This document shows, piece by piece, positions 20,595-32,391 of a stretch of 64,000 nt of DNA. Every line of letters begins with the position of its first letter. Within the stretch, counting starts at the first letter, position 1. The notes under the pieces were generated by a model that did no database searches, was not told the origin of the DNA, and saw nothing but the letters and a program-made list of their open reading frames with translations. The DNA comes from an uncultured bacterium. GTDB lineage: Bacteria > Eisenbacteria > RBG-16-71-46. Location: contig CAZPVG010000008.1 in assembly GCA_964589945.1 (NCBI GenBank), positions 6,639 to 70,638 on the forward strand, in the 5' to 3' direction. Both the position numbers and the translations under genes were made by a program.

Positions 20595-22715
20595 TCAGAC
20601 GCTCCAGTGCTCGGCCTCCCAGTCGGCGCCCGGCACGACCACGCGCAGGGGCTGCCCGGGCGGGAGCGTCTCGAGGCGCTCGGCGCCGCGGCCGAGGTGG
20701 AGCAGCAGCTCGAGCGTCCCGCCGGGCGGGACGCCCAGTGCCTCGAACGGCAGCGCGATCTCGAGCACGTCCTCCACCGCGGCTTCGCCCACCGGCTCGA
20801 CGGCACCCTCCCGCCCGCGTTCGACCGCCCTCCGGCCCGGCGCGAGGAGCCCCACCCGCAGCCGGCCCGGCGCGGGCGAGAGCAGCTCGAGCTCGACGGC
20901 CACGTCGTCCTGCGGCGCCTCCCCCCCGGCGAACTCCACGAGGAGGAAGAGGTGCGTCGTGTCGAAGCCGTACTGGAGCCCGGACACCAGCGTCGCGCTC
21001 GCGCGGTGCATCGAGCCGCCCGCCGGGAACTCCCACGTGCCGGCGCCGTCCCACTCGTAGTAGCGCGTGCGGCGGCCGTCGATGACCGGGTGGATGAGCC
21101 CGGCGGGTTCCGCGTGCACCGCGGCCGACGCGGGACGGACGATGGGTGCGAGGACCGCGTTCGGGACGGGCAGTCCCGCCCTCTCGTAAATCGCCTGAAG
21201 ATGGGACCGGAAGAGGCTGTCGAACAACGTCTTGTCGGCCGTGAAGTGGTCGTCCCCGAACCACCAGAACCAGTCCGACCCTTCCGCCGCCGCGAGCGAT
21301 TCCCACGCCTCCGGACGGCCCTCGCGGGTGTGGCCGGCTTCGACGAGGGCCGCCCGTGCGCGGGCGAGCAGATCCCAGGCGCGATTCTTCTCGGGGTGGC
21401 CGGCCCAGACGTGGAGGTCCGCGTCGATCCACGAGCCGGTGTGGAGGAAATCGAGGACACCGGGCTCCGGGCCGTCGGCGAGGACTTCGGAGGGCGTGCG
21501 CGTCCGGACGTCCGGGGCGGACTCCAGCGCCCCGTAGAGCGCGTCGAGGAACGGACCCCCGTCCCCGGGGTAGTGCTCCCAGCAGTTCTCGCCGTCGAGG
21601 ATCACGGAGACGACCGGGCGCCCGCGCAGCCCGGCGGCCGCATGTTCGGCGCCGATGCGCCGCAGTTGCCGCAGGAAGTCGGCGGCCGCGTCGGCCGCCT
21701 TCCAGCCCGCGTAGACGAACCCGATCCGGTCCGAGAGGTCGTGGTCGCGGAAGAAGATCGCGATCTCCCCCGCCTCCGTGCGGAAGGTCCACGGCCGGTA
21801 GAGCCCCTCCCGTCTCGCCCCCGCCGGTCCGACCGACTTCCACAGAACGAGCTCGTCGGTGGCGATCCACCGCACGCCGGCCGCCGCGAGGACTGCGGCC
21901 GCCTCCGGGCTCACGCTGCCCTCCGAGGGCCACATGCCGGCCGGCCGCACGCCGAAGGCGGAGGCGGTGCGCTCGAGCCCGCGCTCGACCTGCCAGCGGG
22001 CGTCCTCGGGCGAGGCGAGCTCGGCCGCGGGCACCGGCAGGTCGGGACGCGAGCGCCGTCCGGCGCGCACGTCCACGAGCAGCGGCAGGATCGGATGGTA
22101 GGCGGGCGAGCAGCTGATCTCGGCCTGACCGCGAGCCGCCAGTCGCCGGTAGGCCGGAACGACCCTCCCGAGCACGTCGGCGTGCAGCGCGAGGAGCGCG
22201 TCGCGGTCCGACAGTCCGGCCCGCCTCTCCGTTACGGCCGCCTCCGCGGCGGCCGCCGCCGGCTCGGAGAGCAGCAGCGGGTCGAGCCAGGCGAGCAGGA
22301 AATACACCGACAGCCGCATCAGCTCCGCGTCGGTCGCGACAGCCGGGGCGCGCAGGCGGCGGCAGAGGGCCTCGTAGCCCGGCCAGCGCGCGAACGCCCA
22401 GCGGGGCGCGGTCCGCATCCGGGCCTGGAGCTCCGCGCGTTCCCCTGCGCCGAGGGCCTTGGGCGGCCGGGCGAGCAGGTCGAACAGCAGGTCGCCGCCG
22501 CCGTTGCGGGCGTGGTCGAGCTGCTCGAGCAACGAAGGCACGAAGTTGAACGTCGCCTTCAGGCCCGCGTGGCGCTCGAGGCGGAGCGCCATGTCGAGGT
22601 AGTCCTTCGTGGCGTGCAGCCTCACCCACGGCAGGACCGAGCGCCCGTCGCGCGGATGGCGGTAGTCGGGCTGGTGATGGTGCCAGAGGAAGACGAGGTC
22701 GACGCCGGGGGACAT
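20595..22715 (-). CDS. Glycoside hydrolase family 57 protein (alpha-amylase / amylopullulanase-like)
   Basis: GH57 signature regions are present: LVFLWHHHQPDYR, HATKDYLDM, WPSEGSVSPE (nucleophile Glu context), ILDGENCWEHY and GSDWFWWFGDDH. A C-terminal beta-rich extension follows. Confidence 0.88.
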   Translation of the reverse strand: MSPGVDLVFLWHHHQPDYRHPRDGRSVLPWVRLHATKDYLDMALRLERHAGLKATFNFVPSLLEQLDHARNGGGDLLFDLLARPPKALGAGERAELQARMRTAPRWAFARWPGYEALCRRLRAPAVATDAELMRLSVYFLLAWLDPLLLSEPAAAAAEAAVTERRAGLSDRDALLALHADVLGRVVPAYRRLAARGQAEISCSPAYHPILPLLVDVRAGRRSRPDLPVPAAELASPEDARWQVERGLERTASAFGVRPAGMWPSEGSVSPEAAAVLAAAGVRWIATDELVLWKSVGPAGARREGLYRPWTFRTEAGEIAIFFRDHDLSDRIGFVYAGWKAADAAADFLRQLRRIGAEHAAAGLRGRPVVSVILDGENCWEHYPGDGGPFLDALYGALESAPDVRTRTPSEVLADGPEPGVLDFLHTGSWIDADLHVWAGHPEKNRAWDLLARARAALVEAGHTREGRPEAWESLAAAEGSDWFWWFGDDHFTADKTLFDSLFRSHLQAIYERAGLPVPNAVLAPIVRPASAAVHAEPAGLIHPVIDGRRTRYYEWDGAGTWEFPAGGSMHRASATLVSGLQYGFDTTHLFLLVEFAGGEAPQDDVAVELELLSPAPGRLRVGLLAPGRRAVERGREGAVEPVGEAAVEDVLEIALPFEALGVPPGGTLELLLHLGRGAERLETLPPGQPLRVVVPGADWEAEHWSV

Positions 22716-22746
22716 GGGCCATCCAGGCGCGGCCCGGGGCCGCGGG

Positions 22747-23418
22747 TCAGCTGTGCGTGAGGCCCTCGAGCTCGGCGAGGCGGACGCGCGCGAGGCTCGC
22801 GGAGCTGGTCTCGCCGAACTCGTCCACCAGGCGCTTCAACTGCTCGATCGCCGCGGTCTTGTTGCCGAGCGCCTCCTGGCAGCGGGCCGCACCGGCGAGG
22901 AATTCCGCGCTCGACTCGCGATCGAAGACCCCGACGAGGCCGTCGTAGAGCTTCGAGGCCTCGGCGTACTGCTTGTCGTTTTCGAGCGCGTAGGCGAGGT
23001 TGCGGCGCACGACGTTGCCCATCAGGCCCGAGTCGTGCTTGGCGAGGTACGCCCGGTACGACGTGACGGCGGCCTTGAAATCGCCGTTCCAGTAGTCCGC
23101 GTCGCCGGCGATCCGCAGCGCGTCGAGGCCGCTCGGGGTGCTGCCGTACTGCTTGGCCACCTCGTCGGCGATCGTCTTCGAGCGCTCGTAGTCGCCCTGC
23201 CAGAAGAGCGTGTTGGCCTGGGCGAGCTTGGTGGAGGCCGCGGTCTCCTGCGTCTCGTTCGAGCGGATCGTGAAGTACGCGACCGCGGCGACCACGATCA
23301 GGGCCGCGAGGGCGCCGAGGATGATGCGGGCGTACCGCTCCCAGAGAGCGGTCACCCGGTCGACGAGTTCCGCGCCCGGATCCGAGAGCGCGGTACCCTT
23401 GCGAGACTCCAGCGACAA
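22747..23418 (-). CDS. Membrane-anchored TPR protein (YfgM-like)
   Basis: TTG start with GGAGG 6 nt upstream. It has one N-terminal TM helix (ILGALAALIVVAAVAYF) followed by TPR-like helical repeats, the same architecture as YfgM/UPF0070. Confidence 0.65.
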   Translation of the reverse strand: MSLESRKGTALSDPGAELVDRVTALWERYARIILGALAALIVVAAVAYFTIRSNETQETAASTKLAQANTLFWQGDYERSKTIADEVAKQYGSTPSGLDALRIAGDADYWNGDFKAAVTSYRAYLAKHDSGLMGNVVRRNLAYALENDKQYAEASKLYDGLVGVFDRESSAEFLAGAARCQEALGNKTAAIEQLKRLVDEFGETSSASLARVRLAELEGLTHS

Positions 23419-23530
23419 GCGAAACCTCCGGAGAACAAAGGCGAAGAGACGGGGCTTCCCAAGGCGAGAAACGGCAAGGACTTTAACGGGCGGCCCGCCC
23501 GGGGGTCAAGGCACCCGGGCGCGGCGCACC

Positions 23531-24661
23531 TCAGGCCCCGCCGGCGCACATGACGCAGGCGACGTGGCCGCGCGCGCGCACCAGGATCTCCGCCGGCCGG
23601 CCGCAGGTCGGGCAGGCCGGAAGCGCCGGCCGGCCGCGCGCCACGTCCACGAGCGAGCGGACCTTGACGTGCATGGCGCCCGACTTGAGCTCCTGCTCGA
23701 GGTCGGCCACGGGCCACGACCACTCCTCGAGGCCCCACAGCCGGACCTCGGTGCGCATCTCCCAGCGCTGCCGCACCTCGGCGGCGCGCCGCTCCCATTC
23801 GAGCTTGAGGGACGTCGAGTCGCCGGTGTCCATCTCGCGGTCCTCGCCGCCGGTGCGGCGGCGCAGGCGGTCTTCCTCCTCCTCGATCCGGGCCGAGAAG
23901 AACGCCCCCAGCCGGTCCAGCTCGAGGTCCCGCAGCCGGCCGACCGAGACCGCCCATTCCTGCTCGCGCTCGGAGGCGAGTTCCTCGAGCGTCTGCCGGG
24001 CGAGCTGCAGCCAGCGCTCGCGCACCTCGGGCTCGAGTTCCTCGCCCATCTGGTAGAGCCCCTCGCGCGGCCGCACGTCGGGAACCTGCGGCGCCTGGGC
24101 GCGCTCGAGCACCTCGCCGCCCGCGCCCACGAGCACGACCCACTGCTCCTGCCATGGCAGGCCGCCCCAGCGGGTGATGACCGCGTGGAAGGCCATGCGC
24201 CGCTCGTACCGCACCGGACCCAGCCGCGGCGTGCCCCACGTGAGGCCGCGCACCTTGCAGACCGTGGCGAAGCCGGCCGGCGGCGCCCCCGGCACGTGCG
24301 CCAGCGCCGTCCGGCGCGTGAACATCGGGGCGGCCAGCGCAGCCTCGAGAATCCGGCGCCCGGCCGCGCTGCCCGGCGCCGTGAACCACGCCCCGCGCGG
24401 GACGGTCGGGCGCGCCGGGTCGAACACGAGGCGCACCCGCTGGCGCCGCCAGCGCTTCTGCAGCGGCGTCGAGAGCTCCACCTCCCAGTCGCCCCGGGGC
24501 GCGTCCTCGACGCGGCAGCCCGCGCGCTCGAGCCAGCTGCCGACGAAGCGCCGCCATTCGGGCTGCTCGGCGGCGGTCTCGCCGTGCGGGATCTCGGGCG
24601 CCGGCGCACGGGATCTCGCGCGCGCCGGGGCGCGCCGCCGTCTCGCACGCACGGCCGTCAC
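23531..24661 (-). CDS. Uncharacterised protein with C-terminal Zn-ribbon, translationally coupled to the SNF2 ATPase (possibly YqhG-like)
   Basis: This is the 3' third of track ORF 23531..26488. The GTG at 24661 overlaps the SNF2 TGA (GTGA). The composition is real-protein-like (Trp, Glu, Lys, Met), with an acidic coiled-coil-like centre (ARIEEEEDRLRRR...LKLEWERRAAEVRQRWE). The terminal motif is CPTCGRPAEILVRARGHVACVMCAGG (CPxC-N14-CxxC). Confidence 0.65.
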   Translation of the reverse strand: MTAVRARRRRAPARARSRAPAPEIPHGETAAEQPEWRRFVGSWLERAGCRVEDAPRGDWEVELSTPLQKRWRRQRVRLVFDPARPTVPRGAWFTAPGSAAGRRILEAALAAPMFTRRTALAHVPGAPPAGFATVCKVRGLTWGTPRLGPVRYERRMAFHAVITRWGGLPWQEQWVVLVGAGGEVLERAQAPQVPDVRPREGLYQMGEELEPEVRERWLQLARQTLEELASEREQEWAVSVGRLRDLELDRLGAFFSARIEEEEDRLRRRTGGEDREMDTGDSTSLKLEWERRAAEVRQRWEMRTEVRLWGLEEWSWPVADLEQELKSGAMHVKVRSLVDVARGRPALPACPTCGRPAEILVRARGHVACVMCAGGA

Positions 24662-26640
24662 GAGGAGCCCTCCTCCTCGGCGTCCTGCGGGCCGCGGAAC
24701 AGCCAGCTCTGGCTGTCGCGCTGCTGCTGGTAGAGCTTGCGCGCGGTGACGAGGTGCTGCGCGAGTTCGGTGAACCGCTTCTTGCGCACGCGCGGGTTGC
24801 GCGACTCCGTCCAGCGGCGGAAGACTTCCTCCTCGAACGATCCCTGCATCTGCCAGGTGCCGAGGATCTCCTCCATCTCGCCCACCACGAGCTCGAACAT
24901 GCGGATCTTCCGCTCGAGGATCTCGAGCACGTAGGCCTCGATCGTGCCCCGTGCGACGAGGTTCACGACCCGCACCGGGTGCTCCTGCCCGAGCCGGTGG
25001 ACGCGGCCGATGCGCTGCTCGACGCGCATCGGGTTCCAGGGCAGGTCGTAGTTGATCACGATGCGCGCGAACTGCAGGTTCCGGCCCTCGCCGCCGGCCT
25101 CCGTGCTGACGAGCACCTGGTCGCGCAGGCGGAACTGCTCGAGGGCCTCCTCCTTCTCGCGCCAGCCCATCTCGCCGTGGAACATCGCGTGCGTCACGCC
25201 CTCGGCGCGCAGCGCCTCCAGGATCGAGTCCTGCGTCGCCCGGAACTGGGTGAACACGATCGCCTTCTCGCCCCTGAGCGAGGCGATCACGCGCAGCAGC
25301 GTGCGGATCTTCCCCGGATCCTCGCGCAGCTCCGCGGCCCGATCGGCGAACGCCCGCACCCGCTTCGGATCGAGTCCGTCGGGGTGCGACGCGAGCTTGC
25401 GCAGCGTGCCGACAGCCGCCGCCCACGAGGAGCCCATTTCCTTCTGCAGGACCATGAGCGTGAAATAGTGCGGCTTGCCGGGCTGCCCGGCGTCGCCGTG
25501 CACGGCCTCGGCCACGAACTCGCTCACCTGGCGGTAGAGCTGCTTCTCGGCCGCGGACTGCTTGATCGCCACGGTCTCGACGCGCCGCGGCGCGAACGTG
25601 AGCTTCGTGTCGGCGCGGCGGCTGCGGATCATGACGCTCTGGAGCAGCCGGCGGAGCCGCGGCGTGTTGCGCGGCGTCCGCTTGTCGTGCGCGGAGAGGA
25701 AGTCGCGCCGGAACTGCGAGAACGTGCCGACGGTGCCCGGGCGGACGAGCGTGACGAGGTTGTAGAGCTCGCGCAGGTCGTTCTGGACCGGCGTCGCGGT
25801 GAGCAGCAGCAGGTAGCGCGGATTCAGGTCGTTGATGAACTTCCAGCCGAGCGTGAGGTGGTTGCGCAGGCGGTGCGCCTCGTCCACGACGACCATGTCG
25901 TAGTTCGCCCCGCGCACGCGACGCCGGTGGCGCTCGTGGCGCGCCGTCTCGAGCGACGAGATGACGAGCGGGTGGCGTCCCCACAGGCCGGCGGGCCCGC
26001 GCGAGACGACGAAGTCGAGTTCGAACTTCTCCCACAGCTCGGCGCGCCACTGCTCGCAGAGGGAGGCGGGAACGAGCACGAGCACCGTGCGCACCGCGCC
26101 GCGGAGCAGGTACTCCTTCAGCACGATGCCGGCCTCGACGGTCTTCCCGAGCCCGACCTCGTCGGCGAAGATGCCCCGGCCCCCGAAGTCGCGGAGCATG
26201 CGCAGGCACGCATCCACCTGGTGCGGAAACCGCTCGACGCCGCGCAGCGAGTCGAGCGAGAGCAGCCGGTCGGCGCTCGCCCAGCCGGCCCATTCCTCCG
26301 CCGCGGCGCGCAGGTCGAAATGCAGCTGCGGCTCGGCCTCGTTCTCGAGCCAGCGGCGGAGCAGCTCGTCGCCCTGGGCGTGCCAGTGCCGCGCCGCGGC
26401 CGACGGGCGCGCCAGCGCCACCTCGACTCCGTCCGTCTCCCCGCCCTCGGGCACCGTCGTGGGCGCCGCGCCGTCCACGATCGCCCACTCGCGCTGCGCC
26501 GAGAGCCGCCGCAGCTGGCCGCCGAAGACGACCTCGAGCACCTCCCGTCCGCGGTCGGTGTGCACCTCGACGATCAGCCCTTCACCGAACTGGGGGTGAT
26601 GGAGGCGCTGTCCCACCTGGTAGCGATCGGTCAGGTCCAC
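24658..26640 (-). CDS. SNF2-family DNA-dependent ATPase (RapA/HepA-like) with N-terminal Tudor-like domain
   Basis: Helicase motifs are present: I ADEVGLGKTVEAG, II VVVDEAHRLRN, III LLLTATPVQN, V VSTEAGGEGRNLQ and VI WNPMRVEQRIGRVHRLGQ. The N-terminal ~50 aa (VGQRLHHPQFGEGLIVEV...LEVVFGGQLRRL) fit the PcrA/UvrD C-terminal Tudor pattern. The GTG start overlaps the upstream gene by 10 nt. Confidence 0.92.
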   Translation of the reverse strand: MDLTDRYQVGQRLHHPQFGEGLIVEVHTDRGREVLEVVFGGQLRRLSAQREWAIVDGAAPTTVPEGGETDGVEVALARPSAAARHWHAQGDELLRRWLENEAEPQLHFDLRAAAEEWAGWASADRLLSLDSLRGVERFPHQVDACLRMLRDFGGRGIFADEVGLGKTVEAGIVLKEYLLRGAVRTVLVLVPASLCEQWRAELWEKFELDFVVSRGPAGLWGRHPLVISSLETARHERHRRRVRGANYDMVVVDEAHRLRNHLTLGWKFINDLNPRYLLLLTATPVQNDLRELYNLVTLVRPGTVGTFSQFRRDFLSAHDKRTPRNTPRLRRLLQSVMIRSRRADTKLTFAPRRVETVAIKQSAAEKQLYRQVSEFVAEAVHGDAGQPGKPHYFTLMVLQKEMGSSWAAAVGTLRKLASHPDGLDPKRVRAFADRAAELREDPGKIRTLLRVIASLRGEKAIVFTQFRATQDSILEALRAEGVTHAMFHGEMGWREKEEALEQFRLRDQVLVSTEAGGEGRNLQFARIVINYDLPWNPMRVEQRIGRVHRLGQEHPVRVVNLVARGTIEAYVLEILERKIRMFELVVGEMEEILGTWQMQGSFEEEVFRRWTESRNPRVRKKRFTELAQHLVTARKLYQQQRDSQSWLFRGPQDAEEEGSS

Positions 26641-28040
26641 AGGTCGAACTCCTGTCCCTTCTCGGGCACGTGAACCGAGGCGGTCATGCGCTCGCGCAGC
26701 AGCCCCGCGAGCGTCTCGGCCGCCGGCGGCTCGCCGTGGACGAGGAAGATGGTGCGCGGCGCCGGATCGAGCGCGGCCACCCAGTCGAGCAACTCGCGCT
26801 GGTCGGCGTGCGCGCTGAAGCCGTCGAGCGACGCGATCTCGGCGCGCACCCGCACGGGCTCCCCGAACACGTTCACGGTCTCGGCGCCCTCCTCCAGGCG
26901 GCGCCCCAGGGTGCCGTCACCCTGGTAGCCCACGAACAGCACGGTGTTCCGCTCGTTGCCGAGGGCGTGCTGCAGGTGGTGGAGCACTCGGCCGCCCTCG
27001 GCCATTCCGGAGGCCGAGATGATGATGCACGGGTCGCGGCGGTCGTTGAGCGCCTTCGACTCGTCGGCCGACCCGACGTAGCGCAGCCGTCCGAAGCCGA
27101 AGGGCGCCCCGCCCCCCTGCGAGAACAGCGCGGCCGTCTCGGCGTCGAAGCACTCCGGGTGGCGCACGAAGATCGCGGTGGCGTTCCGTGCCATCGGGCT
27201 GTCCACGAAGATCGGCAGGTCCGGCAGCCGCCCGCCTTCGATGAGATCGTGGAGCGTCGCGACGAGCTCCTGCGTGCGGCCCACGGCGAAAGCCGGCACG
27301 ACGAGCCGCCCCCCGCGCCCGACCGTGCGGGTGACGATGTCCACGAGGCCCTCGATCGTCTCGCTCTCGTCGGCGTGCAGCCGGTTGCCGTACGTGCTCT
27401 CGAGCACGAGCGTGTCGGCCCCGCGCGGCACCTCGGGGTCGCGCAGGATCGGGCGCTCCGGCCGGCCGAGGTCACCGCCCATCAGCAGCCGGTGCGTCCG
27501 GCCGTTCGCCGTGAATTCGAAGCTCGTCAGCGCCGAGCCCAGGATGTGGCCGGCGTCGTGGTAGCGGACGCGGATGCCCGGGAACAGCGTCCAGTCCTCG
27601 TGGTAGCGGTGCGTCTCGAAGCGACCGGTCACCGCGTCGACGTCGGACATCGTGTAGAGGGGCTTGCGGGGAGCGCGGCCGCCCCCGTATCGCCGGTTGA
27701 CGTGCTCGACGTCCTTCTGCTGCAGGAACGCGCTGTCGGCCAGCATCACGCGCGAAAGGTCGGCCGTGGCCGGCGTCAGGTGCACCGGGCCCCGGAATCC
27801 CTGCGCCGAGAGCGTCGGCAGGTTTCCGGTGTGGTCGAGATGGGCGTGGGAGATTACGACGGCGTCGAGCTCCCCGGGTGGGAAGCGGAACGTCCGGTTC
27901 ACGCGCTCGGCCTCGTCCCGGTGCCCCTGGTAGAGCCCGCAGTCGAAGAGGAACGAGCGGCGGCCGAAGCGCAGCAGGTGCCGCGATCCGGTCACCGTCC
28001 GGGCCGCCCCGTGGAACGCGATGCCGAGCGAAGTCGTCAT
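26631..28040 (-). CDS. MBL-fold beta-CASP nuclease (CPSF73/Ysh1-type, RNA-metabolising)
   Basis: HxHxDH motif VVISHAHLDHTGN, HDAGHILGS and the beta-CASP motif A LESTYG are present. The C-terminal RMMBL-type motif is LDGFSAHADQRELLDWV, with His at motif C. Length is 469 aa. Confidence 0.9.
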   Translation of the reverse strand: MTTSLGIAFHGAARTVTGSRHLLRFGRRSFLFDCGLYQGHRDEAERVNRTFRFPPGELDAVVISHAHLDHTGNLPTLSAQGFRGPVHLTPATADLSRVMLADSAFLQQKDVEHVNRRYGGGRAPRKPLYTMSDVDAVTGRFETHRYHEDWTLFPGIRVRYHDAGHILGSALTSFEFTANGRTHRLLMGGDLGRPERPILRDPEVPRGADTLVLESTYGNRLHADESETIEGLVDIVTRTVGRGGRLVVPAFAVGRTQELVATLHDLIEGGRLPDLPIFVDSPMARNATAIFVRHPECFDAETAALFSQGGGAPFGFGRLRYVGSADESKALNDRRDPCIIISASGMAEGGRVLHHLQHALGNERNTVLFVGYQGDGTLGRRLEEGAETVNVFGEPVRVRAEIASLDGFSAHADQRELLDWVAALDPAPRTIFLVHGEPPAAETLAGLLRERMTASVHVPEKGQEFDLWT

Positions 28041-28043
28041 GGG

Positions 28044-28679
28044 TCAGTAGGCCGCGTAGAAGATGATCCCCGCCGAAGCCTGGAGATTGTGGTTCACGGA
28101 GGAGGCGAGGAAGATCGCCTGGTAGCGGGCGCTGAAGTCCACCGCCCAGCTCCGGTAGACGTAGTGCTCCACCCCCCCGGCGGCGCTCAGGAACGTGCCG
28201 TCGCCGCCGATCGGGTACTGGATCTCGCCGCTCGAGAGCCTCGCCGAGATCTGCGCGAGCCCGGCCCCGAGCGAGAGCCAGCGCACGTTCTGGTTGCGCG
28301 TCCCGAAGAACTGGTAGAGCTCGATGCCCGTGGTCGTCAGGTTGAGCTCGTCGCGCGTGAGCAGCGAGTCGGCGGGCCCGAGCTCGTTGTTGAACGCGCC
28401 CGCCGGGTAGCCGAGCACCCGCGAGTCGAGCGTGTACTGGTCGAACGTCAGGCCGAGCCCGCGCTCGTAGCGCATGCGGTAGCGAAGCCGCACGCCGACG
28501 CCGAAGCCCGAGCCGAACTCCCGGCCGACGACGCCGGTGTTCGCGAGCGAGCCGAAGTCTCCCACCACCGCGATGCCGACCTGCCCGGCGCGCGGGAGCA
28601 CGAGGGTGGCCGCGCCGGCCGTCCCGGCGAGCACCATCCCGATCCCGATCCCGGCGAACCACGCTGCGAGACGCTTCAT
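28044..28679 (-). CDS. Small outer-membrane beta-barrel protein
   Basis: The internal ATG at 28679 gives the signal peptide MKRLAAWFAGIGIGMVLAGTAGAA. It has alternating hydrophobic beta-strand patterns (GVGVRLRYRMRY, LSLGAGLAQISARL, AVDFSARYQAIFL) and an aromatic C-terminus (IIFYAAY). Its stop lies 3 nt before the beta-CASP gene start. Confidence 0.75.
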   Translation of the reverse strand: MKRLAAWFAGIGIGMVLAGTAGAATLVLPRAGQVGIAVVGDFGSLANTGVVGREFGSGFGVGVRLRYRMRYERGLGLTFDQYTLDSRVLGYPAGAFNNELGPADSLLTRDELNLTTTGIELYQFFGTRNQNVRWLSLGAGLAQISARLSSGEIQYPIGGDGTFLSAAGGVEHYVYRSWAVDFSARYQAIFLASSVNHNLQASAGIIFYAAY

Positions 28680-28714
28680 CCTCTCCTCCACGACCCCGGT
28701 CGTCTGTCCCGCGC

Positions 28715-29653
28715 CTAGGCGCGGGGGTGGAACTGGCGATGCACCTCGCGCAGGTAGCCGCGGTCGAGGTGCGTGTAGATGGCGGTGGTGGTCACCGACG
28801 CGTGCCCGAGGAGTTCCTGGACGACGCGCAGGTCCGCTCCCCCCTCGAGCAGGTGCGTCGCGAACGAGTGCCGCAGGGCGTGCGGGTGCACGCGGGTCGC
28901 GAGGCCTGCCCGGCGCGCGTGCCCCCGCAGGATCTTCCACCAGCCCGCGCGGCTGAGCGGGCCGCCGCGCGCGTTGCAGAACACGCGGTCGTGGCGCGCC
29001 GACCGCACGAGCTGCGGCCGGCCGCGCTCGAGCCACTCCGCGAGCGCCGCGGCCGCGGCGCGCCCGAACGGCACGACGCGCTGCCGGTCGCCCTTGCCCG
29101 TCACGGTCACGAAGCGCCCCCGCATCTCCACCTGCCCGCGCGGGAGGCCGACGAGCTCGGAGACACGCAGTCCGCAGGCGTAGGCGAGCTCGAGCATGGC
29201 GCGGTCGCGAAGCGCGAGCGGAGCCTCGCCCTCAGGCTGCGCGAGCAGCCGTTCGAGGTCGGCCAGCGGGATCGCATACGGCAGCCGGCGCTCGCGGCGC
29301 GGGGCGGGCAGCACCGCGACCGGGTCTTCCGTCGCGTGGCCGACGCGCGCGAGGAAGGCGTGGAACCCCCGCAGGGTCGAGCGCCGTCGCGCGACGGTCG
29401 CTCCCGAGAGCCCGCGCCGCTGCAGCGAGGCGAAGTAGGCGTCCACGAAGGTCACCGTGGCCTCGCGCCAGTCGTCCAGCCGATGGGTCCGCGCGAAGGC
29501 CTGGTAGTCCTCGAGGTCCCGCCGGTACGCGTCGAGCGTCCGCGCGCTGAGCCGCCGGCCCTTCTGCAGCTCGTCGAGCCACGCCTCGACCGCCGGCCGC
29601 AGGGATGCGTCCCGCCGCCCCGGGGCCCCTGGCGTCGCGACGACCGGGCTCAC
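28715..29653 (-). CDS. xerD: Site-specific tyrosine recombinase XerD
   Basis: The GTG at 29653 overlaps the uvrC TGA (GTGA). It has the catalytic RHRY pattern: ELAYACGLRVSELVGL, GKGDRQRVVPFG, HPHALRHSFATHLLEGGADLRVVQELLGHASVTTTAIYTHL and a C-terminal HPRA. LSRAGWWKIL is XerD-like. Confidence 0.88.
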   Translation of the reverse strand: MSPVVATPGAPGRRDASLRPAVEAWLDELQKGRRLSARTLDAYRRDLEDYQAFARTHRLDDWREATVTFVDAYFASLQRRGLSGATVARRRSTLRGFHAFLARVGHATEDPVAVLPAPRRERRLPYAIPLADLERLLAQPEGEAPLALRDRAMLELAYACGLRVSELVGLPRGQVEMRGRFVTVTGKGDRQRVVPFGRAAAAALAEWLERGRPQLVRSARHDRVFCNARGGPLSRAGWWKILRGHARRAGLATRVHPHALRHSFATHLLEGGADLRVVQELLGHASVTTTAIYTHLDRGYLREVHRQFHPRA

Positions 29654-31473
29654 GCCGCCCCCTCCCGGCCCGCGAGGTGCTCGGCCACCCGGCGCGCGAG
29701 CGCGAGCGGCACGTGCGCGCGCGCCGCGATGTCCGGGGCGTCCGCCGCGCGCAGCGCCGTGACCGACCCGAACGCCTTGAGCAGCGCCGCGCGGCGCGCG
29801 GGGCCCACGCCGGGGACGGTGTCGAGCAGGCTGCCGATGCGCGCCCGCGACCGCAGCATGCGGTGGTACTCGAGGCCGAAGCGGTGCGCCTCGTCGCGCA
29901 GCCGCTGCAGCGCCCGCAGCGAGGGCGATCGGCGCGGCAGCCGGACGTCGGGGGCGCCCTCGCGCACGATGGTCTCCTCGCGCTTGGCGAGCCCGATCAT
30001 CGGGACGGGCCGCGTCGCGACGCGGTCGAGCGCCGCGCGGGCCGCCGAGAGCTGCCCGGCGCCCCCGTCGACCACGACGAGATCCGGGCGCGGCAGCTCG
30101 TCGGACTCGACGCGCGTCCAGTACCGCTCGACCGCCTCGCCGATCATGGCGAAATCGTCCGGGCCCGGACGGCGGATGCGCATCCGGCGGTAGAGCTTCT
30201 TGAGAGGCCGGCCGTCCTCCGAGGCGACCACCGCGGCGACGGCCTGGTCGGGCCCGAAGTTCGAGACGTCGAAGCAGACCATGCGATGGGGCGGCACCGG
30301 CAGCGCGAGCTCGCGCTGGAGCCCCGAGACGGCGGGTACGAGCCGCACGCGCCGTCCCGAGCGACGCGCCTCGATCTGCTCGAGCGCCGCGAGCGCGTTC
30401 CGCTCCGCGCCTTCGACGAGCCGGCGCGCCCGCCCGCGCACGGGCGCCACCAGCGCCACGGCGCGTCCCGCGTGGCGCGCGAGGGCCTCGGCGAGCGTGT
30501 CGTGATTCGCGGGCAGCGTGCCGACGAGCACCCGCCGCGGCAGGTCCGGGCGGGCGAGCGCGTACTGCGTGACCCAGGCCTCGACGAGCGCGCCGTCGTC
30601 GAGCCCGGAGGCGCGCTCGAGCAGCCGCGTCTCCTTGCCGATCACCCGACCCCCGCGCACGAGCAGCGTGGCGACGGCGGCCCGGTCCCCGTGCCGCGCG
30701 ACGCCCAGCACGTCGGTGTCGCGCGGGTCGTTCGTCACCATGCTCTGCGGCAGCCTCGCACGCTCGAGCAGCCGCACCTGGTCGCGCCGCCGGGCGGCCG
30801 TCTCGTAGCGGCGCTCCGCGGCGGCCTCCTCCATCTCGCGGCGCAGCCGCGTGATCAGCTCTTCGTCGCGGCCCGTGAGCAGCATGAGGAAGCCCTCGAC
30901 GAGCGCGCGGTAGTCCTCGCGCCGCACCCCCGCCCGCGAGTAGCACGGCCCGGCGCAGCGCTTGATGTGGAAGTACAGGCAGGGCCGGTCCTGCCGGCGG
31001 TAGTCCTCGAAGTTCCGGCAGGTGCGCAGCGGGAAGACCCGGCGCAGCTCGCGCAGTGTCCGGCGCAGGTGCTTCACGTCCGTGTACGGCCCGAGGTAGC
31101 GCGCGCCGTCGTCCCGGACCCGGCGGGTGACCGACAGCCGGGGGAACTCGTCCCGGAGCGACACCTTCACGAACGGGAAGCTCTTGTCGTCCTTCAGCAG
31201 CACGTTGAAATGCGGCCGGTGCTGCCGGATGAGCGTGGATTCGAGCAGCAGCGCCTCGGCGTCCGAGGCGGTCACGATCGTGTCCACGTCCACGGCCCGG
31301 GCGATCATCTCCTCCATCCGGGGCCGCTGCGGGTCGGGCGCAAGGTAGCTGCGCACGCGGGCCGCGAGGCTGCGCGCCTTGCCGACGTACAGCACCTCGC
31401 CGCGGCCGTCCTTGAACAGGTAAACCCCTGGAACGGCGGGCAAAATCGCGATTTTTTCGGCCAGCGCGCCCAC
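29650..31473 (-). CDS. uvrC: Excinuclease ABC subunit C
   Basis: The GIY-YIG domain is PGVYLFKDGRGEVLYVGKARSLAARVRSY. It also has a UVR domain (MEEAAAERRYETAARRRDQVRLLE), an endonuclease-V-like domain and C-terminal (HhH)2 (VPGVGPARRAALLKAFGS). The GTG at 31473 puts 14 aa before PGVY, as in known UvrC proteins. The track ORF extends to 31641, into the rpsT promoter region. Confidence 0.93.
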   Translation of the reverse strand: MGALAEKIAILPAVPGVYLFKDGRGEVLYVGKARSLAARVRSYLAPDPQRPRMEEMIARAVDVDTIVTASDAEALLLESTLIRQHRPHFNVLLKDDKSFPFVKVSLRDEFPRLSVTRRVRDDGARYLGPYTDVKHLRRTLRELRRVFPLRTCRNFEDYRRQDRPCLYFHIKRCAGPCYSRAGVRREDYRALVEGFLMLLTGRDEELITRLRREMEEAAAERRYETAARRRDQVRLLERARLPQSMVTNDPRDTDVLGVARHGDRAAVATLLVRGGRVIGKETRLLERASGLDDGALVEAWVTQYALARPDLPRRVLVGTLPANHDTLAEALARHAGRAVALVAPVRGRARRLVEGAERNALAALEQIEARRSGRRVRLVPAVSGLQRELALPVPPHRMVCFDVSNFGPDQAVAAVVASEDGRPLKKLYRRMRIRRPGPDDFAMIGEAVERYWTRVESDELPRPDLVVVDGGAGQLSAARAALDRVATRPVPMIGLAKREETIVREGAPDVRLPRRSPSLRALQRLRDEAHRFGLEYHRMLRSRARIGSLLDTVPGVGPARRAALLKAFGSVTALRAADAPDIAARAHVPLALARRVAEHLAGREGAA

Positions 31474-31618
31474 AGAACCCTCCAGGCACACGTGCGGGGG
31501 TACCAGAGGGAAGCAGACTACACGCCTCGGCGGCGTCGGGACAACGGGGAATCCGGTCTCGTCCCGGCACGGGCCGGCGGTCCCTCCCCGCTCCACCGGG
31601 GCGCGCACCCTCCGGGTC

Positions 31619-31647
31619 TTGACAGGGTCGCCGTAACCCATTACTTT
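31619..31647 (+). promoter_or_regulatory. Sigma70-type promoter of rpsT (TTGACA-N17-TACTTT)
   Basis: A perfect -35 hexamer at 31619-31624 and TACTTT at 31642-31647 with 17-nt spacing lie about 45 nt upstream of the rpsT ATG. GGAGGA sits at 31681-31686. The promoter lies in the divergent uvrC/rpsT intergenic region. Confidence 0.5.
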
Positions 31648-31690
31648 CCCACGGCTTTTTGACGATCTGCCGACCCTTCAGGAGGAGTCC

Positions 31691-31948
31691 ATGCCGCATC
31701 ACAAGTCCGCGGCCAAGCGCGTGGTGACCAACGAGAAGAGCCGCCAGAGGAACCTGGCGGCGAGCAGCCGGCTGCGCACGGCCGTCAAGACGGTCCGGGC
31801 GGCCAAGTCCCGCGCCGACGGCGAGGCCGCGCTGCGCGGCACCACGGCCGTTCTGGATCGCACGGCCGCCAAGGGGATCATCAAGCGCGAAGCCGCGAAC
31901 CGGCAGAAGGCGCGCCTGGCGAAGTTCGTCGCCAAGCTTCCGGCCTGA
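31691..31948 (+). CDS. rpsT: 30S ribosomal protein S20
   Basis: MPHHKSAAKRVVTNEKSRQRNLAASSRLRTAVK... is the canonical S20 N-terminus. It is 85 aa and basic. Confidence 0.95.
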   Translation: MPHHKSAAKRVVTNEKSRQRNLAASSRLRTAVKTVRAAKSRADGEAALRGTTAVLDRTAAKGIIKREAANRQKARLAKFVAKLPA

Positions 31949-31959
31949 TCGGGACCGAC

Positions 31960-32391
31960 ATGCTGCGCCGCTGGGCGGCCGCGCTGATGCTGGCGAGTGT
32001 CGTGAGCGGCATGCCGAACGGGGCCGCCTGCGCCTGGGCGCGGGCGGCCGAACCGTTCGAGGTCGTACCCCGCCCCCCGGCCGACCGGCAACACCATCGC
32101 GCGGCCCTGGCCTGCGCGCTCGTCGGCGCGGGCCTCATCGCCGCCTCCTTCCCGCTGTCCGACCTCGCGGACCGGCGCTACGCCGCCTACCTCGCCGAGT
32201 CCGAGCCGTCGGCCGTCGAGGAGCGGTACCGCGCGACGGTCCGTGCCGACCGCATGGCGAGCGGCTCGCTGCTCGTCGGCGAGGGTCTCCTCGTCACCGC
32301 CGTCTGGCTGCGCTTCGTCCACCGGTCGCGCGAGCCGCGGGCCGGCCTGGTCGTGGGTCCCGACCGATGCGCCCTGCTCGTGCGCTTCTGA
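31960..32391 (+). CDS. Hypothetical membrane/secreted protein
   Basis: It starts 12 nt after rpsT. It has an N-terminal signal-like segment and two hydrophobic helices (ALACALVGAGLIAASFPL and LLVGEGLLVTAVWLRF). I recognise no family. Confidence 0.5.
   Translation: MLRRWAAALMLASVVSGMPNGAACAWARAAEPFEVVPRPPADRQHHRAALACALVGAGLIAASFPLSDLADRRYAAYLAESEPSAVEERYRATVRADRMASGSLLVGEGLLVTAVWLRFVHRSREPRAGLVVGPDRCALLVRF

Follow-up and report, generated by a model that had tools for sequence, protein, structure and literature searches.

Do the tightly packed genes downstream of uvrC and xerD in an uncultured member of the Eisenbacteria belong to a single system, and does that system act on RNA polymerase (RNAP)? 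The genes in question are four open reading frames (ORFs) on the minus strand, within positions 23531-28679 of a 64,000-nucleotide (nt) stretch of DNA (hereafter, the window; GenBank assembly GCA_964589945.1, contig CAZPVG010000008.1, positions 6,639 to 70,638; lineage RBG-16-71-46). They encode, in the order of transcription, a small outer-membrane beta-barrel protein, a beta-CASP nuclease, a SNF2-family ATPase and a protein with a terminal zinc ribbon that is denoted gene4 here. A preliminary description, prepared from the DNA alone, took the four genes for one cassette and proposed an RNAP-directed rescue or termination module of a composition not described in any bacterial system. The analysis presented here retains the part of this proposal that concerns the motor and its Tudor domain, in the form of a RapA-like enzyme, but not the membership of the nuclease and the barrel protein. 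The SNF2 protein and gene4 are probably a RapA-like RNAP recycler that is divided between two polypeptides, with the nuclease as a facultative associate and the barrel protein as a neighbor. The core of such a system is not without described relatives, these being Escherichia coli RapA and YqhH/YqhG of Bacillus subtilis; a description of the split RapA design itself was not found in a limited literature search.

The SNF2 and gene4 genes form the conserved pair

The genes for the SNF2-family ATPase (24658..26640, minus strand; 660 amino acids, aa) and gene4 (23531..24661, minus strand; 376 aa) are joined in the window by a GTGA overlap at 24661-24658. A scan of the SNF2 protein against 185,579 species genomes yielded 80 loci, and a match to the gene4 hidden Markov model directly follows the SNF2 gene in 80 of the 80 evaluable loci (those with more than 130 nt present downstream of the SNF2 gene), including non-syntenic contexts in other lineages. 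A 4-nt NTGA stop/start overlap between the two genes is possible in 50 of 56 loci. In the survey that started from gene4, each distant member that could be placed has an SNF2 gene immediately upstream, mostly overlapping. The SNF2 proteins paired with gene4 are orthologous, with 38-48% identity even in other genomic contexts. The loci L006-L009 show the synteny uvrC-xerD-barrel-SNF2-gene4-TPR(-GH57) without the beta-CASP gene, and in L003/L004, L010 (from a metagenome-assembled genome, MAG, of Bacillota) and L011, the SNF2-gene4 pair is embedded in unrelated contexts that contain neither a beta-CASP gene nor a nearby uvrC. The conserved module is the translationally coupled pair of SNF2 and gene4. 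The alternative that the two are a single gene broken by a sequencing error was considered and rejected given that the same frame change with the 4-nt overlap recurs in those 50 of 56 independent assemblies.

Some of the surveyed loci contain additional genes or carry unexpected taxonomic labels. Just upstream of the pair, L003 (1346-5194) and L004 (1345-5194) carry another SNF2 gene, which is larger and of the DUF3670 type; in L003 it is a single fused 1282-aa ORF, and in L004 it consists of a 268-aa and a 1000-aa ORF. In two deep lineages, an ORF of approximately 525-535 aa that shows no Pfam match is inserted between gene4 and the TPR gene (L008:9205-10812 and L009:9218-10792); the one in L009 overlaps the gene4 stop and could be a third member of the module there. 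The contigs L017, L030, L043, L063, L083 and L087 are 74-84% identical to the window locus, and L090 is approximately 51% identical, with MAG labels that read Acidiferrales, Verrucomicrobiia, Saccharimonadaceae, Limnocylindria, Methylomirabilota, Udaeobacter and Micavibrio; these seven are probably mis-binned Eisenbacteria.

The SNF2 ATPase has a RapA-like core and a UvrD-type Tudor domain

The motor contains the SNF2-rel_dom (5e-37) and Helicase_C (1e-25) domains of Pfam, and all its helicase motifs are invariant among the orthologs. The closest sequence in the PDB is that of E. coli RapA (HepA; ~5e-40), and it is to the Swi2/Snf2 core of RapA that the core of this protein is most similar; in the hhalign comparison, residues 96-583 of the SNF2 protein align with RapA residues 114-633 (E 1.7e-48).

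The N-terminal segment (approximately residues 9-43; 26512..26616, minus strand) had been assigned to the PcrA/UvrD Tudor fold in the preliminary description, and this assignment gains support once the family is considered in its entirety. The Pfam model PF21196 (PcrA_UvrD_tudor) gives 15.2 bits with the window protein, below the 23.9-bit cut-off, but 25.9 bits, above the cut-off, with the ortholog in L007, and 20.7, 19.4 and 16.3 bits with three other orthologs. A profile built from the N-termini of 18 orthologs retrieves from the PDB the C-terminal domains of E. coli UvrD (7egs_B, 3.2e-8, and 6yi2_A, 4e-8), and also those of UvrD of Thermus thermophilus and PcrA (5dma, 9e-3). Thus, at the level of the family, sequence comparison supports the presence of a UvrD/PcrA-type Tudor domain. 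As in RapA, a Tudor-fold domain is located N-terminal of the motor; relative to UvrD and PcrA, the placement is different, the domain being N-terminal on a superfamily 2 Swi2/Snf2 ATPase here and C-terminal on a superfamily 1 helicase there. A Tudor domain of the RapA type was tried as an alternative for this segment and dropped, the hhalign comparison of the N-terminal profile with RapA residues 1-110 being not significant.

The predicted fold of gene4 resembles the C-terminal region of RapA

The window gene4 has no match to a Pfam family, NCBIfam, PADLOC or a PDB sequence, and zinc-ribbon families match it weakly. The gene4 family is small, with 58 representatives at 50% identity among 1.84 billion proteins. 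Its members, down to 19-30% identity, share an N-terminal alpha/beta domain, a long helical hairpin and beta-hairpins that end in a Cys4 ribbon. The terminal CPxC...CxxC ribbon recognized in the preliminary description (Cys350, 353, 369 and 372; 23546..23614, minus strand) is a genuine feature of the family: in 39 members, C350 and C353 never vary, and C369 and C372 hardly do. Three members, P0195 (L011:8001-9959), P0172 and P0168, are 508-652 aa in length and carry a long C-terminal extension beyond the ribbon.

The relationship to RapA comes from predicted structures. When the AlphaFold model of the window gene4 (mean predicted local distance difference test score, pLDDT, 85) was compared with the PDB using Foldseek, ranks 1-2 were occupied by RapA (8spg, 8.8e-5, probability 1.0; 8t0l_F, 1.8e-3, probability 0.99) over ~316 columns, and all other matches were at 0.03 or above. 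A model of P0161 (pLDDT 91), a gene4 member that is 19% identical and comes from a different genomic context, again retrieved RapA (4.8e-7 and 4.2e-6), with the next match at 0.23. Alignments of gene4 made with hhalign, which serve only to corroborate the fold matches, are collinear with the same region of RapA at a probability of 3-5%, both for the single sequence (gene4 residues 36-110 with RapA 715-793) and against a profile of the RapA C-terminal region, where gene4 residues 30-254 (23900..24574, minus strand) correspond to RapA ~709-924, inside Pfam RapA_C. The Pfam RapA_C model matches one of 39 family members (P0174, residues 13-94 with model positions 104-189, E 7.5e-4, below the cut-off), and this match falls in the RapA region that is also found by hhalign. 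Pfam YqhG (PF11079) matches six of the 39 members, weakly, at model positions 122-235 (best 17.6 bits, E 0.002, against a cut-off of 25 bits), the window gene4 being without a match to this model. Judging by the models, the fold of gene4 resembles the C-terminal (RapA_C) region of RapA. The gene regarded as an orphan in the preliminary description thus appears to be a homolog of this region, related also to YqhG, on the strength of the fold searches and of RapA_C and YqhG matches that are all weak in sequence.

A probable RapA-like enzyme on two polypeptides

Given that SNF2 residues 96-583 correspond to RapA 114-633 and that gene4 corresponds to RapA from residue ~709 onward, the two genes are collinear with one RapA. 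The Pfam domain order of E. coli RapA, Tudor-Tudor-SNF2-Helicase_C-RapA_C, is likewise collinear with the SNF2 protein followed by gene4. Unlike RapA, the system in the window is split into two genes after approximately RapA residue 710, has one UvrD/PcrA-type Tudor domain in place of the tandem RapA-type Tudors, and bears a Cys4 zinc ribbon on the C-terminal module, which in its predicted fold is otherwise RapA_C-like.

A similar arrangement is found in Bacillus. YqhH of B. subtilis is called HepA/RapA and is treated as a RapA homolog that interacts with RNAP (PMC7385302), and yqhG adjoins yqhH in Bacillus (PMC6123443). Here too, a short RapA-like SNF2 gene is found beside a gene for a small protein, an indication that Firmicutes, too, have this split design, as YqhH plus YqhG. 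The likeness of gene4 to YqhG rests on the Pfam model, that is, on the weak PF11079 matches of the six family members. YqhG is the shorter protein (the model spans 258 positions), and we know of no zinc ribbon in it.

An RNAP-directed role is the best reading of the pair, and its most likely activity is the removal of stalled or post-termination RNAP. The N-terminal domain of RapA binds the beta' zinc-binding domain and the flap tip, which relieves autoinhibition (PMC8666675), and RapA opens the clamp of post-termination complexes, its spacer domain wedging into the cleft (10.1101/2024.09.28.614012). The Tudor domain of PcrA/UvrD binds a TGE hairpin that is present in RNAP beta and UvrB alike (PMC8318588). 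The homology, architecture, linkage and phyletic pattern of the pair are established here; by analogy with RapA and PcrA, we infer the following mechanism. The SNF2 protein and gene4 would assemble into a RapA-like complex, the Tudor domain of which would dock on RNAP, and the SNF2 motor, driven by ATP on DNA, would dislodge stalled polymerases and those that remain stuck after termination. Gene4 would provide the part that resembles the spacer and C-terminal domain, which in RapA touches the opened cleft. Owing to the UvrD-type Tudor domain, docking may differ from that of E. coli RapA. In the clade in which the nuclease is co-expressed, it may degrade RNA left on such complexes, without being an obligate component.

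Several observations weigh against this interpretation. With the NCBIfam equivalog model of RapA (PRK04914), the SNF2 protein scores 192.7 bits, compared with a cut-off of 576 bits, and no match to Pfam Tudor_1_RapA or Tudor_RapA is detected in it at E <= 0.1; the thresholds for RapA, RapA_C and both Tudor models are all missed. A UvrD-type Tudor can also bind UvrB, and the target need not be RNAP. The TM-scores of the Foldseek matches between gene4 and RapA are low (0.26-0.30; root-mean-square deviation 10-11 A) and, therefore, the match rests on local 3Di similarity across ~315 columns; low values are expected if the domains are oriented differently in gene4 and RapA. In sequence, gene4 is linked only weakly to RapA_C and YqhG, with low hhalign probabilities and Pfam matches below the gathering cut-offs in a minority of members, and the sequence of E. 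coli RapA has nothing that would correspond to the zinc ribbon. Finally, in ~90% of the close clade, the nuclease is kept with overlapping junctions, and selection for co-expression could be the reason.

The nuclease is a facultative associate and the barrel a syntenic neighbor

The beta-CASP gene (26631..28040, minus strand) encodes a metallo-beta-lactamase RNase of the TTHA0252/CPSF73 type, 469 aa in length, with matches above the cut-offs to Pfam Beta-Casp (4.5e-41, 140.6 bits), RMMBL (5.4e-21, 74.8 bits) and Lactamase_B. Its closest PDB sequence, over the full length, is the T. thermophilus RNase TTHA0252 (5e-87), followed by archaeal aCPSF1/FttA, type VII Cas14, CPSF73 and INTS11. It resembles TTHA0252 and other bacterial CPSF73-type RNases in size (~430-470 aa), in the metal-binding motifs and beta-CASP motifs A-C, and in the presence of RMMBL. 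The metallo-beta-lactamase motifs 1-4, including motif 2, HAHLDH (27831..27848, minus strand), are present in the window protein together with the complete set of beta-CASP motifs, and H65, H67, D69, H70, H165, D190, E214, H411 and H435 are invariant among orthologs (nine orthologs for the motif histidines). In CPSF73, motif B is SFSAHTD, with H396, and motif C is LVHGE, with H418. By this nomenclature, the GFSAHAD sequence (His411) that was called motif C in the preliminary description is motif B; the true motif C, LVHGE (both motifs within 26730..26822, minus strand), has an invariant histidine, His435, and so the placement of the nuclease in the RNA-acting branch stands, in agreement with the Pfam domains and the TTHA0252 match. 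More specific families fit less well: the protein gives 312.8 bits with the aCPSF1/FttA model TIGR03675 (cut-off 580.2), covering only model positions 176-627, without the KH region; 15.9 bits with the RNase J model TIGR00649 (cut-off 400); and 401 bits with the type VII CRISPR Cas14 model NF045584 (cut-off 800; model positions 3-435 of 612), without a CRISPR context.

A different reading of the locus starts from this gene. The nuclease, the SNF2 ATPase and the zinc-ribbon protein would be a fixed termination-rescue machine akin to the torpedo or to FttA, one that joins a Tudor domain for finding RNAP, a translocating motor and a nuclease for cutting or degrading nascent RNA. Several observations would suit such a machine. 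With archaeal FttA/aCPSF1 and the eukaryotic CPSF73/Xrn2 torpedo, the nuclease shares its fold and active site, its branch being that of RNA-acting enzymes, and the motor is RapA-like and carries a Tudor domain; a eukaryotic Swi2/Snf2 helper, TTF2, is homologous to RapA (PMC8501993). RapA has been reported to prevent R-loops that arise from post-termination complexes (10.1101/2024.09.28.614012), which would be work for an RNase. The nuclease gene is present at the site in 64 of the 70 close Eisenbacteria loci, and its stop overlaps the SNF2 start in 51 of the 55 loci that have it. The physiological role of the bacterial CPSF homologs is unknown (PMC8501993).

The phyletic pattern, however, is difficult to reconcile with a fixed machine. 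In 64 loci, a beta-CASP gene precedes the SNF2 gene; 17 evaluable loci lack it. The latter comprise all 11 in which the SNF2 protein is no more than 52% identical and six close loci (L040, L046, L052, L062, L066 and L087), and in those six the barrel gene abuts the SNF2 gene. The six are scattered over the neighbor-joining tree of SNF2, a distribution that implies several losses or relocations. In the nuclease-side survey, a scan of metagenomes, an SNF2 gene comes after the orthologs of 64-82% identity, save for those in L102 (1759-3168) and L107 (3731-5137). In these two contigs, the nuclease gene (65-66% identity) is found directly after a Peptidase_S46 gene; the next gene is that of a P-type ATPase in L102 and a cytochrome bd-like one in L107, and no SNF2 gene is located within 3-6 kb. 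The two nucleases nest inside the SNF2-linked clade. Of the 62 nuclease homologs with 44-51% identity, not one is encoded within 6 kb of an SNF2 gene or of gene4. The nuclease, as the comparison of these loci indicates, joined the SNF2-gene4 pair once, at the base of one Eisenbacteria clade, and then left this position repeatedly. The preliminary description had called for a survey of gene neighborhoods, with a lack of conserved co-occurrence in related genomes to count against the proposed system; the SNF2 and zinc-ribbon genes do occur together beyond this lineage but the nuclease does not accompany them, and its status as a fixed partner is not supported.

The gene junctions do not restore this status. 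Those of the four genes are as first described: the barrel TGA (28046-28044) is followed by a ccc spacer and the nuclease ATG at 28040, a 3-nt gap; the SNF2 GTG at 26640 precedes the nuclease TGA (26633-26631), giving a 10-nt overlap; and the GTGA overlap completes the series. In the orthologous locus L001 (71-75% identical), five successive overlaps connect uvrC/xerD, xerD/barrel, barrel/nuclease, nuclease/SNF2 and SNF2/gene4. Because the overlaps extend all the way from uvrC to gene4, overlap by itself defines neither a functional unit nor a stoichiometry. What the overlaps show is an operon-like array and not a complex of fixed stoichiometry, contrary to what had been deduced from the packing. 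Since such junctions link uvrC, xerD and the barrel gene as well, and since the nuclease also lacks the KH domains of FttA and the nuclease-motor link is not conserved, an obligate machine of this kind is unlikely. We consider equally unlikely a version confined to the core clade, in which a CPSF73-type RNase was recruited by the split RapA-like motor and the two jointly clear stuck RNAP, the motor dislodging the polymerase and the nuclease removing nascent or R-loop RNA. Compared with TTHA0252, the distinctive feature of the window nuclease is this translational coupling of its gene to a RapA-like motor in one clade.

The barrel gene (28044..28679, minus strand) encodes a 211-aa protein with a signal peptide and an aromatic C-terminus that matches TIGR04565 weakly; its orthologs match OMP_b-brl. 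These orthologs are located between xerD and the next gene regardless of whether the nuclease is present, and are absent from the non-syntenic SNF2-gene4 loci (L003/L004, L010 and L011). The barrel tracks xerD and not the module, and the barrel, uvrC and xerD are syntenic neighbors only. By this phyletic pattern, the barrel was ruled out as a member of the module, and it does not belong to the cassette in which it had originally been included.

Repair and defense

The UvrD-type Tudor domain and the proximity of uvrC invite the notion of an accessory to nucleotide excision repair, in which the Tudor domain docks on UvrB and the SNF2-gene4 pair, together with the product of the neighboring uvrC, remodels repair or lesion-stalled complexes. 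The TGE hairpin bound by this type of domain is the same in UvrB and in RNAP beta (PMC8318588), mutation of yqhH alters UV resistance in Bacillus thuringiensis (PMC10054049), and the uvrC-xerD-barrel-SNF2-gene4 synteny extends across deep Eisenbacteria lineages. However, xerD, the barrel gene, the TPR gene and the GH57 gene are equally syntenic, so that adjacency to uvrC carries little weight, and the pair is found without a nearby uvrC in L003/L004, L010 and L011. Furthermore, the sole structural relative of gene4 is RapA, an RNAP factor. A repair function of this kind is, in our judgment, decidedly improbable.

An anti-phage or nucleic-acid defense module that combines an SNF2 helicase with a nuclease, as in DISARM, BREX, Dpd and Zorya accessories, is rejected as extremely improbable: the SNF2 protein does give sizeable partial scores with DrmD, BrxH, DpdE and ZorD, and the nuclease resembles Cas14, as noted above, but those SNF2 scores are confined to the generic ATPase core and are far below the NCBIfam family cut-offs, the nuclease, gene4 and the neighboring genes have no PADLOC match, the locus contains no methyltransferase, CRISPR array or other partner gene, and the neighborhood (rpsT, uvrC, xerD, GH57, leuS) is deeply conserved and of a housekeeping nature, not a variable island.

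Locus context and transcription unit

The window has a G+C content of ~73%, and nearly all close homologs of its genes are found in MAGs of Candidatus Eisenbacteria. Upstream of the four genes are uvrC and a gene for a XerD-type recombinase; downstream are genes for a YbgF-like TPR protein and a GH57 enzyme. A sigma-70-like promoter match, TTGACC-18-TAAAGT (23480..23509, minus strand; a consensus match only), is located within the 112 nt that separate the gene4 stop from the TPR gene. It is the only such match in 22500-32000, where 0.1 is expected by chance, and it probably marks the downstream end of the transcription unit; its position points to separate transcription of the TPR gene. Rfam and tRNA scans of the window gave no match, and no second copy of SNF2, RapA, beta-CASP or gene4 was found in it; rpoB and uvrB, the genes for the two candidate Tudor targets, are located outside it.

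As listed, the uvrC ORF (663 aa, ATG at 31641) exceeds the orthologs (605-614 aa) by ~50 aa, and its ATG is only 49 nt from that of the divergent rpsT at 31691 (window 29650-31691); on both counts, the true start of uvrC is probably located further downstream. In deeper lineages, a gene for a 207-211-aa protein of the plain Lactamase_B fold, which is not a beta-CASP protein, is found between uvrC and xerD (L007:3727-4350 and L008:3916-4551); in L007, a gene for an MGMT-like methyltransferase is located there as well.

Implications

The sequence and fold comparisons point to a new RapA-like system that consists of two polypeptides, has a Tudor domain of the UvrD type and includes a C-terminal subunit with a zinc ribbon; its known relatives are RapA and YqhH/YqhG. 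If this assignment is correct, the unannotated gene4 family and, by extension, Pfam YqhG gain a testable role, that of the detached C-terminal module of a RapA-type RNAP-recycling ATPase. The UvrD/PcrA-type Tudor domain predicts a docking site on RNAP or UvrB that differs from the contact of E. coli RapA with the zinc-binding domain and the flap. The phyletic data speak for an optional coupling of nuclease and motor; nevertheless, one clade that does couple a CPSF73-type RNase to this motor may be regarded as a natural experiment on nuclease-assisted removal of polymerase outside Firmicutes. Joint action of the RNase and the motor, if true, would be a bacterial counterpart of TTF2/Xrn2 or of FttA torpedo termination that employs a RapA-type ATPase.

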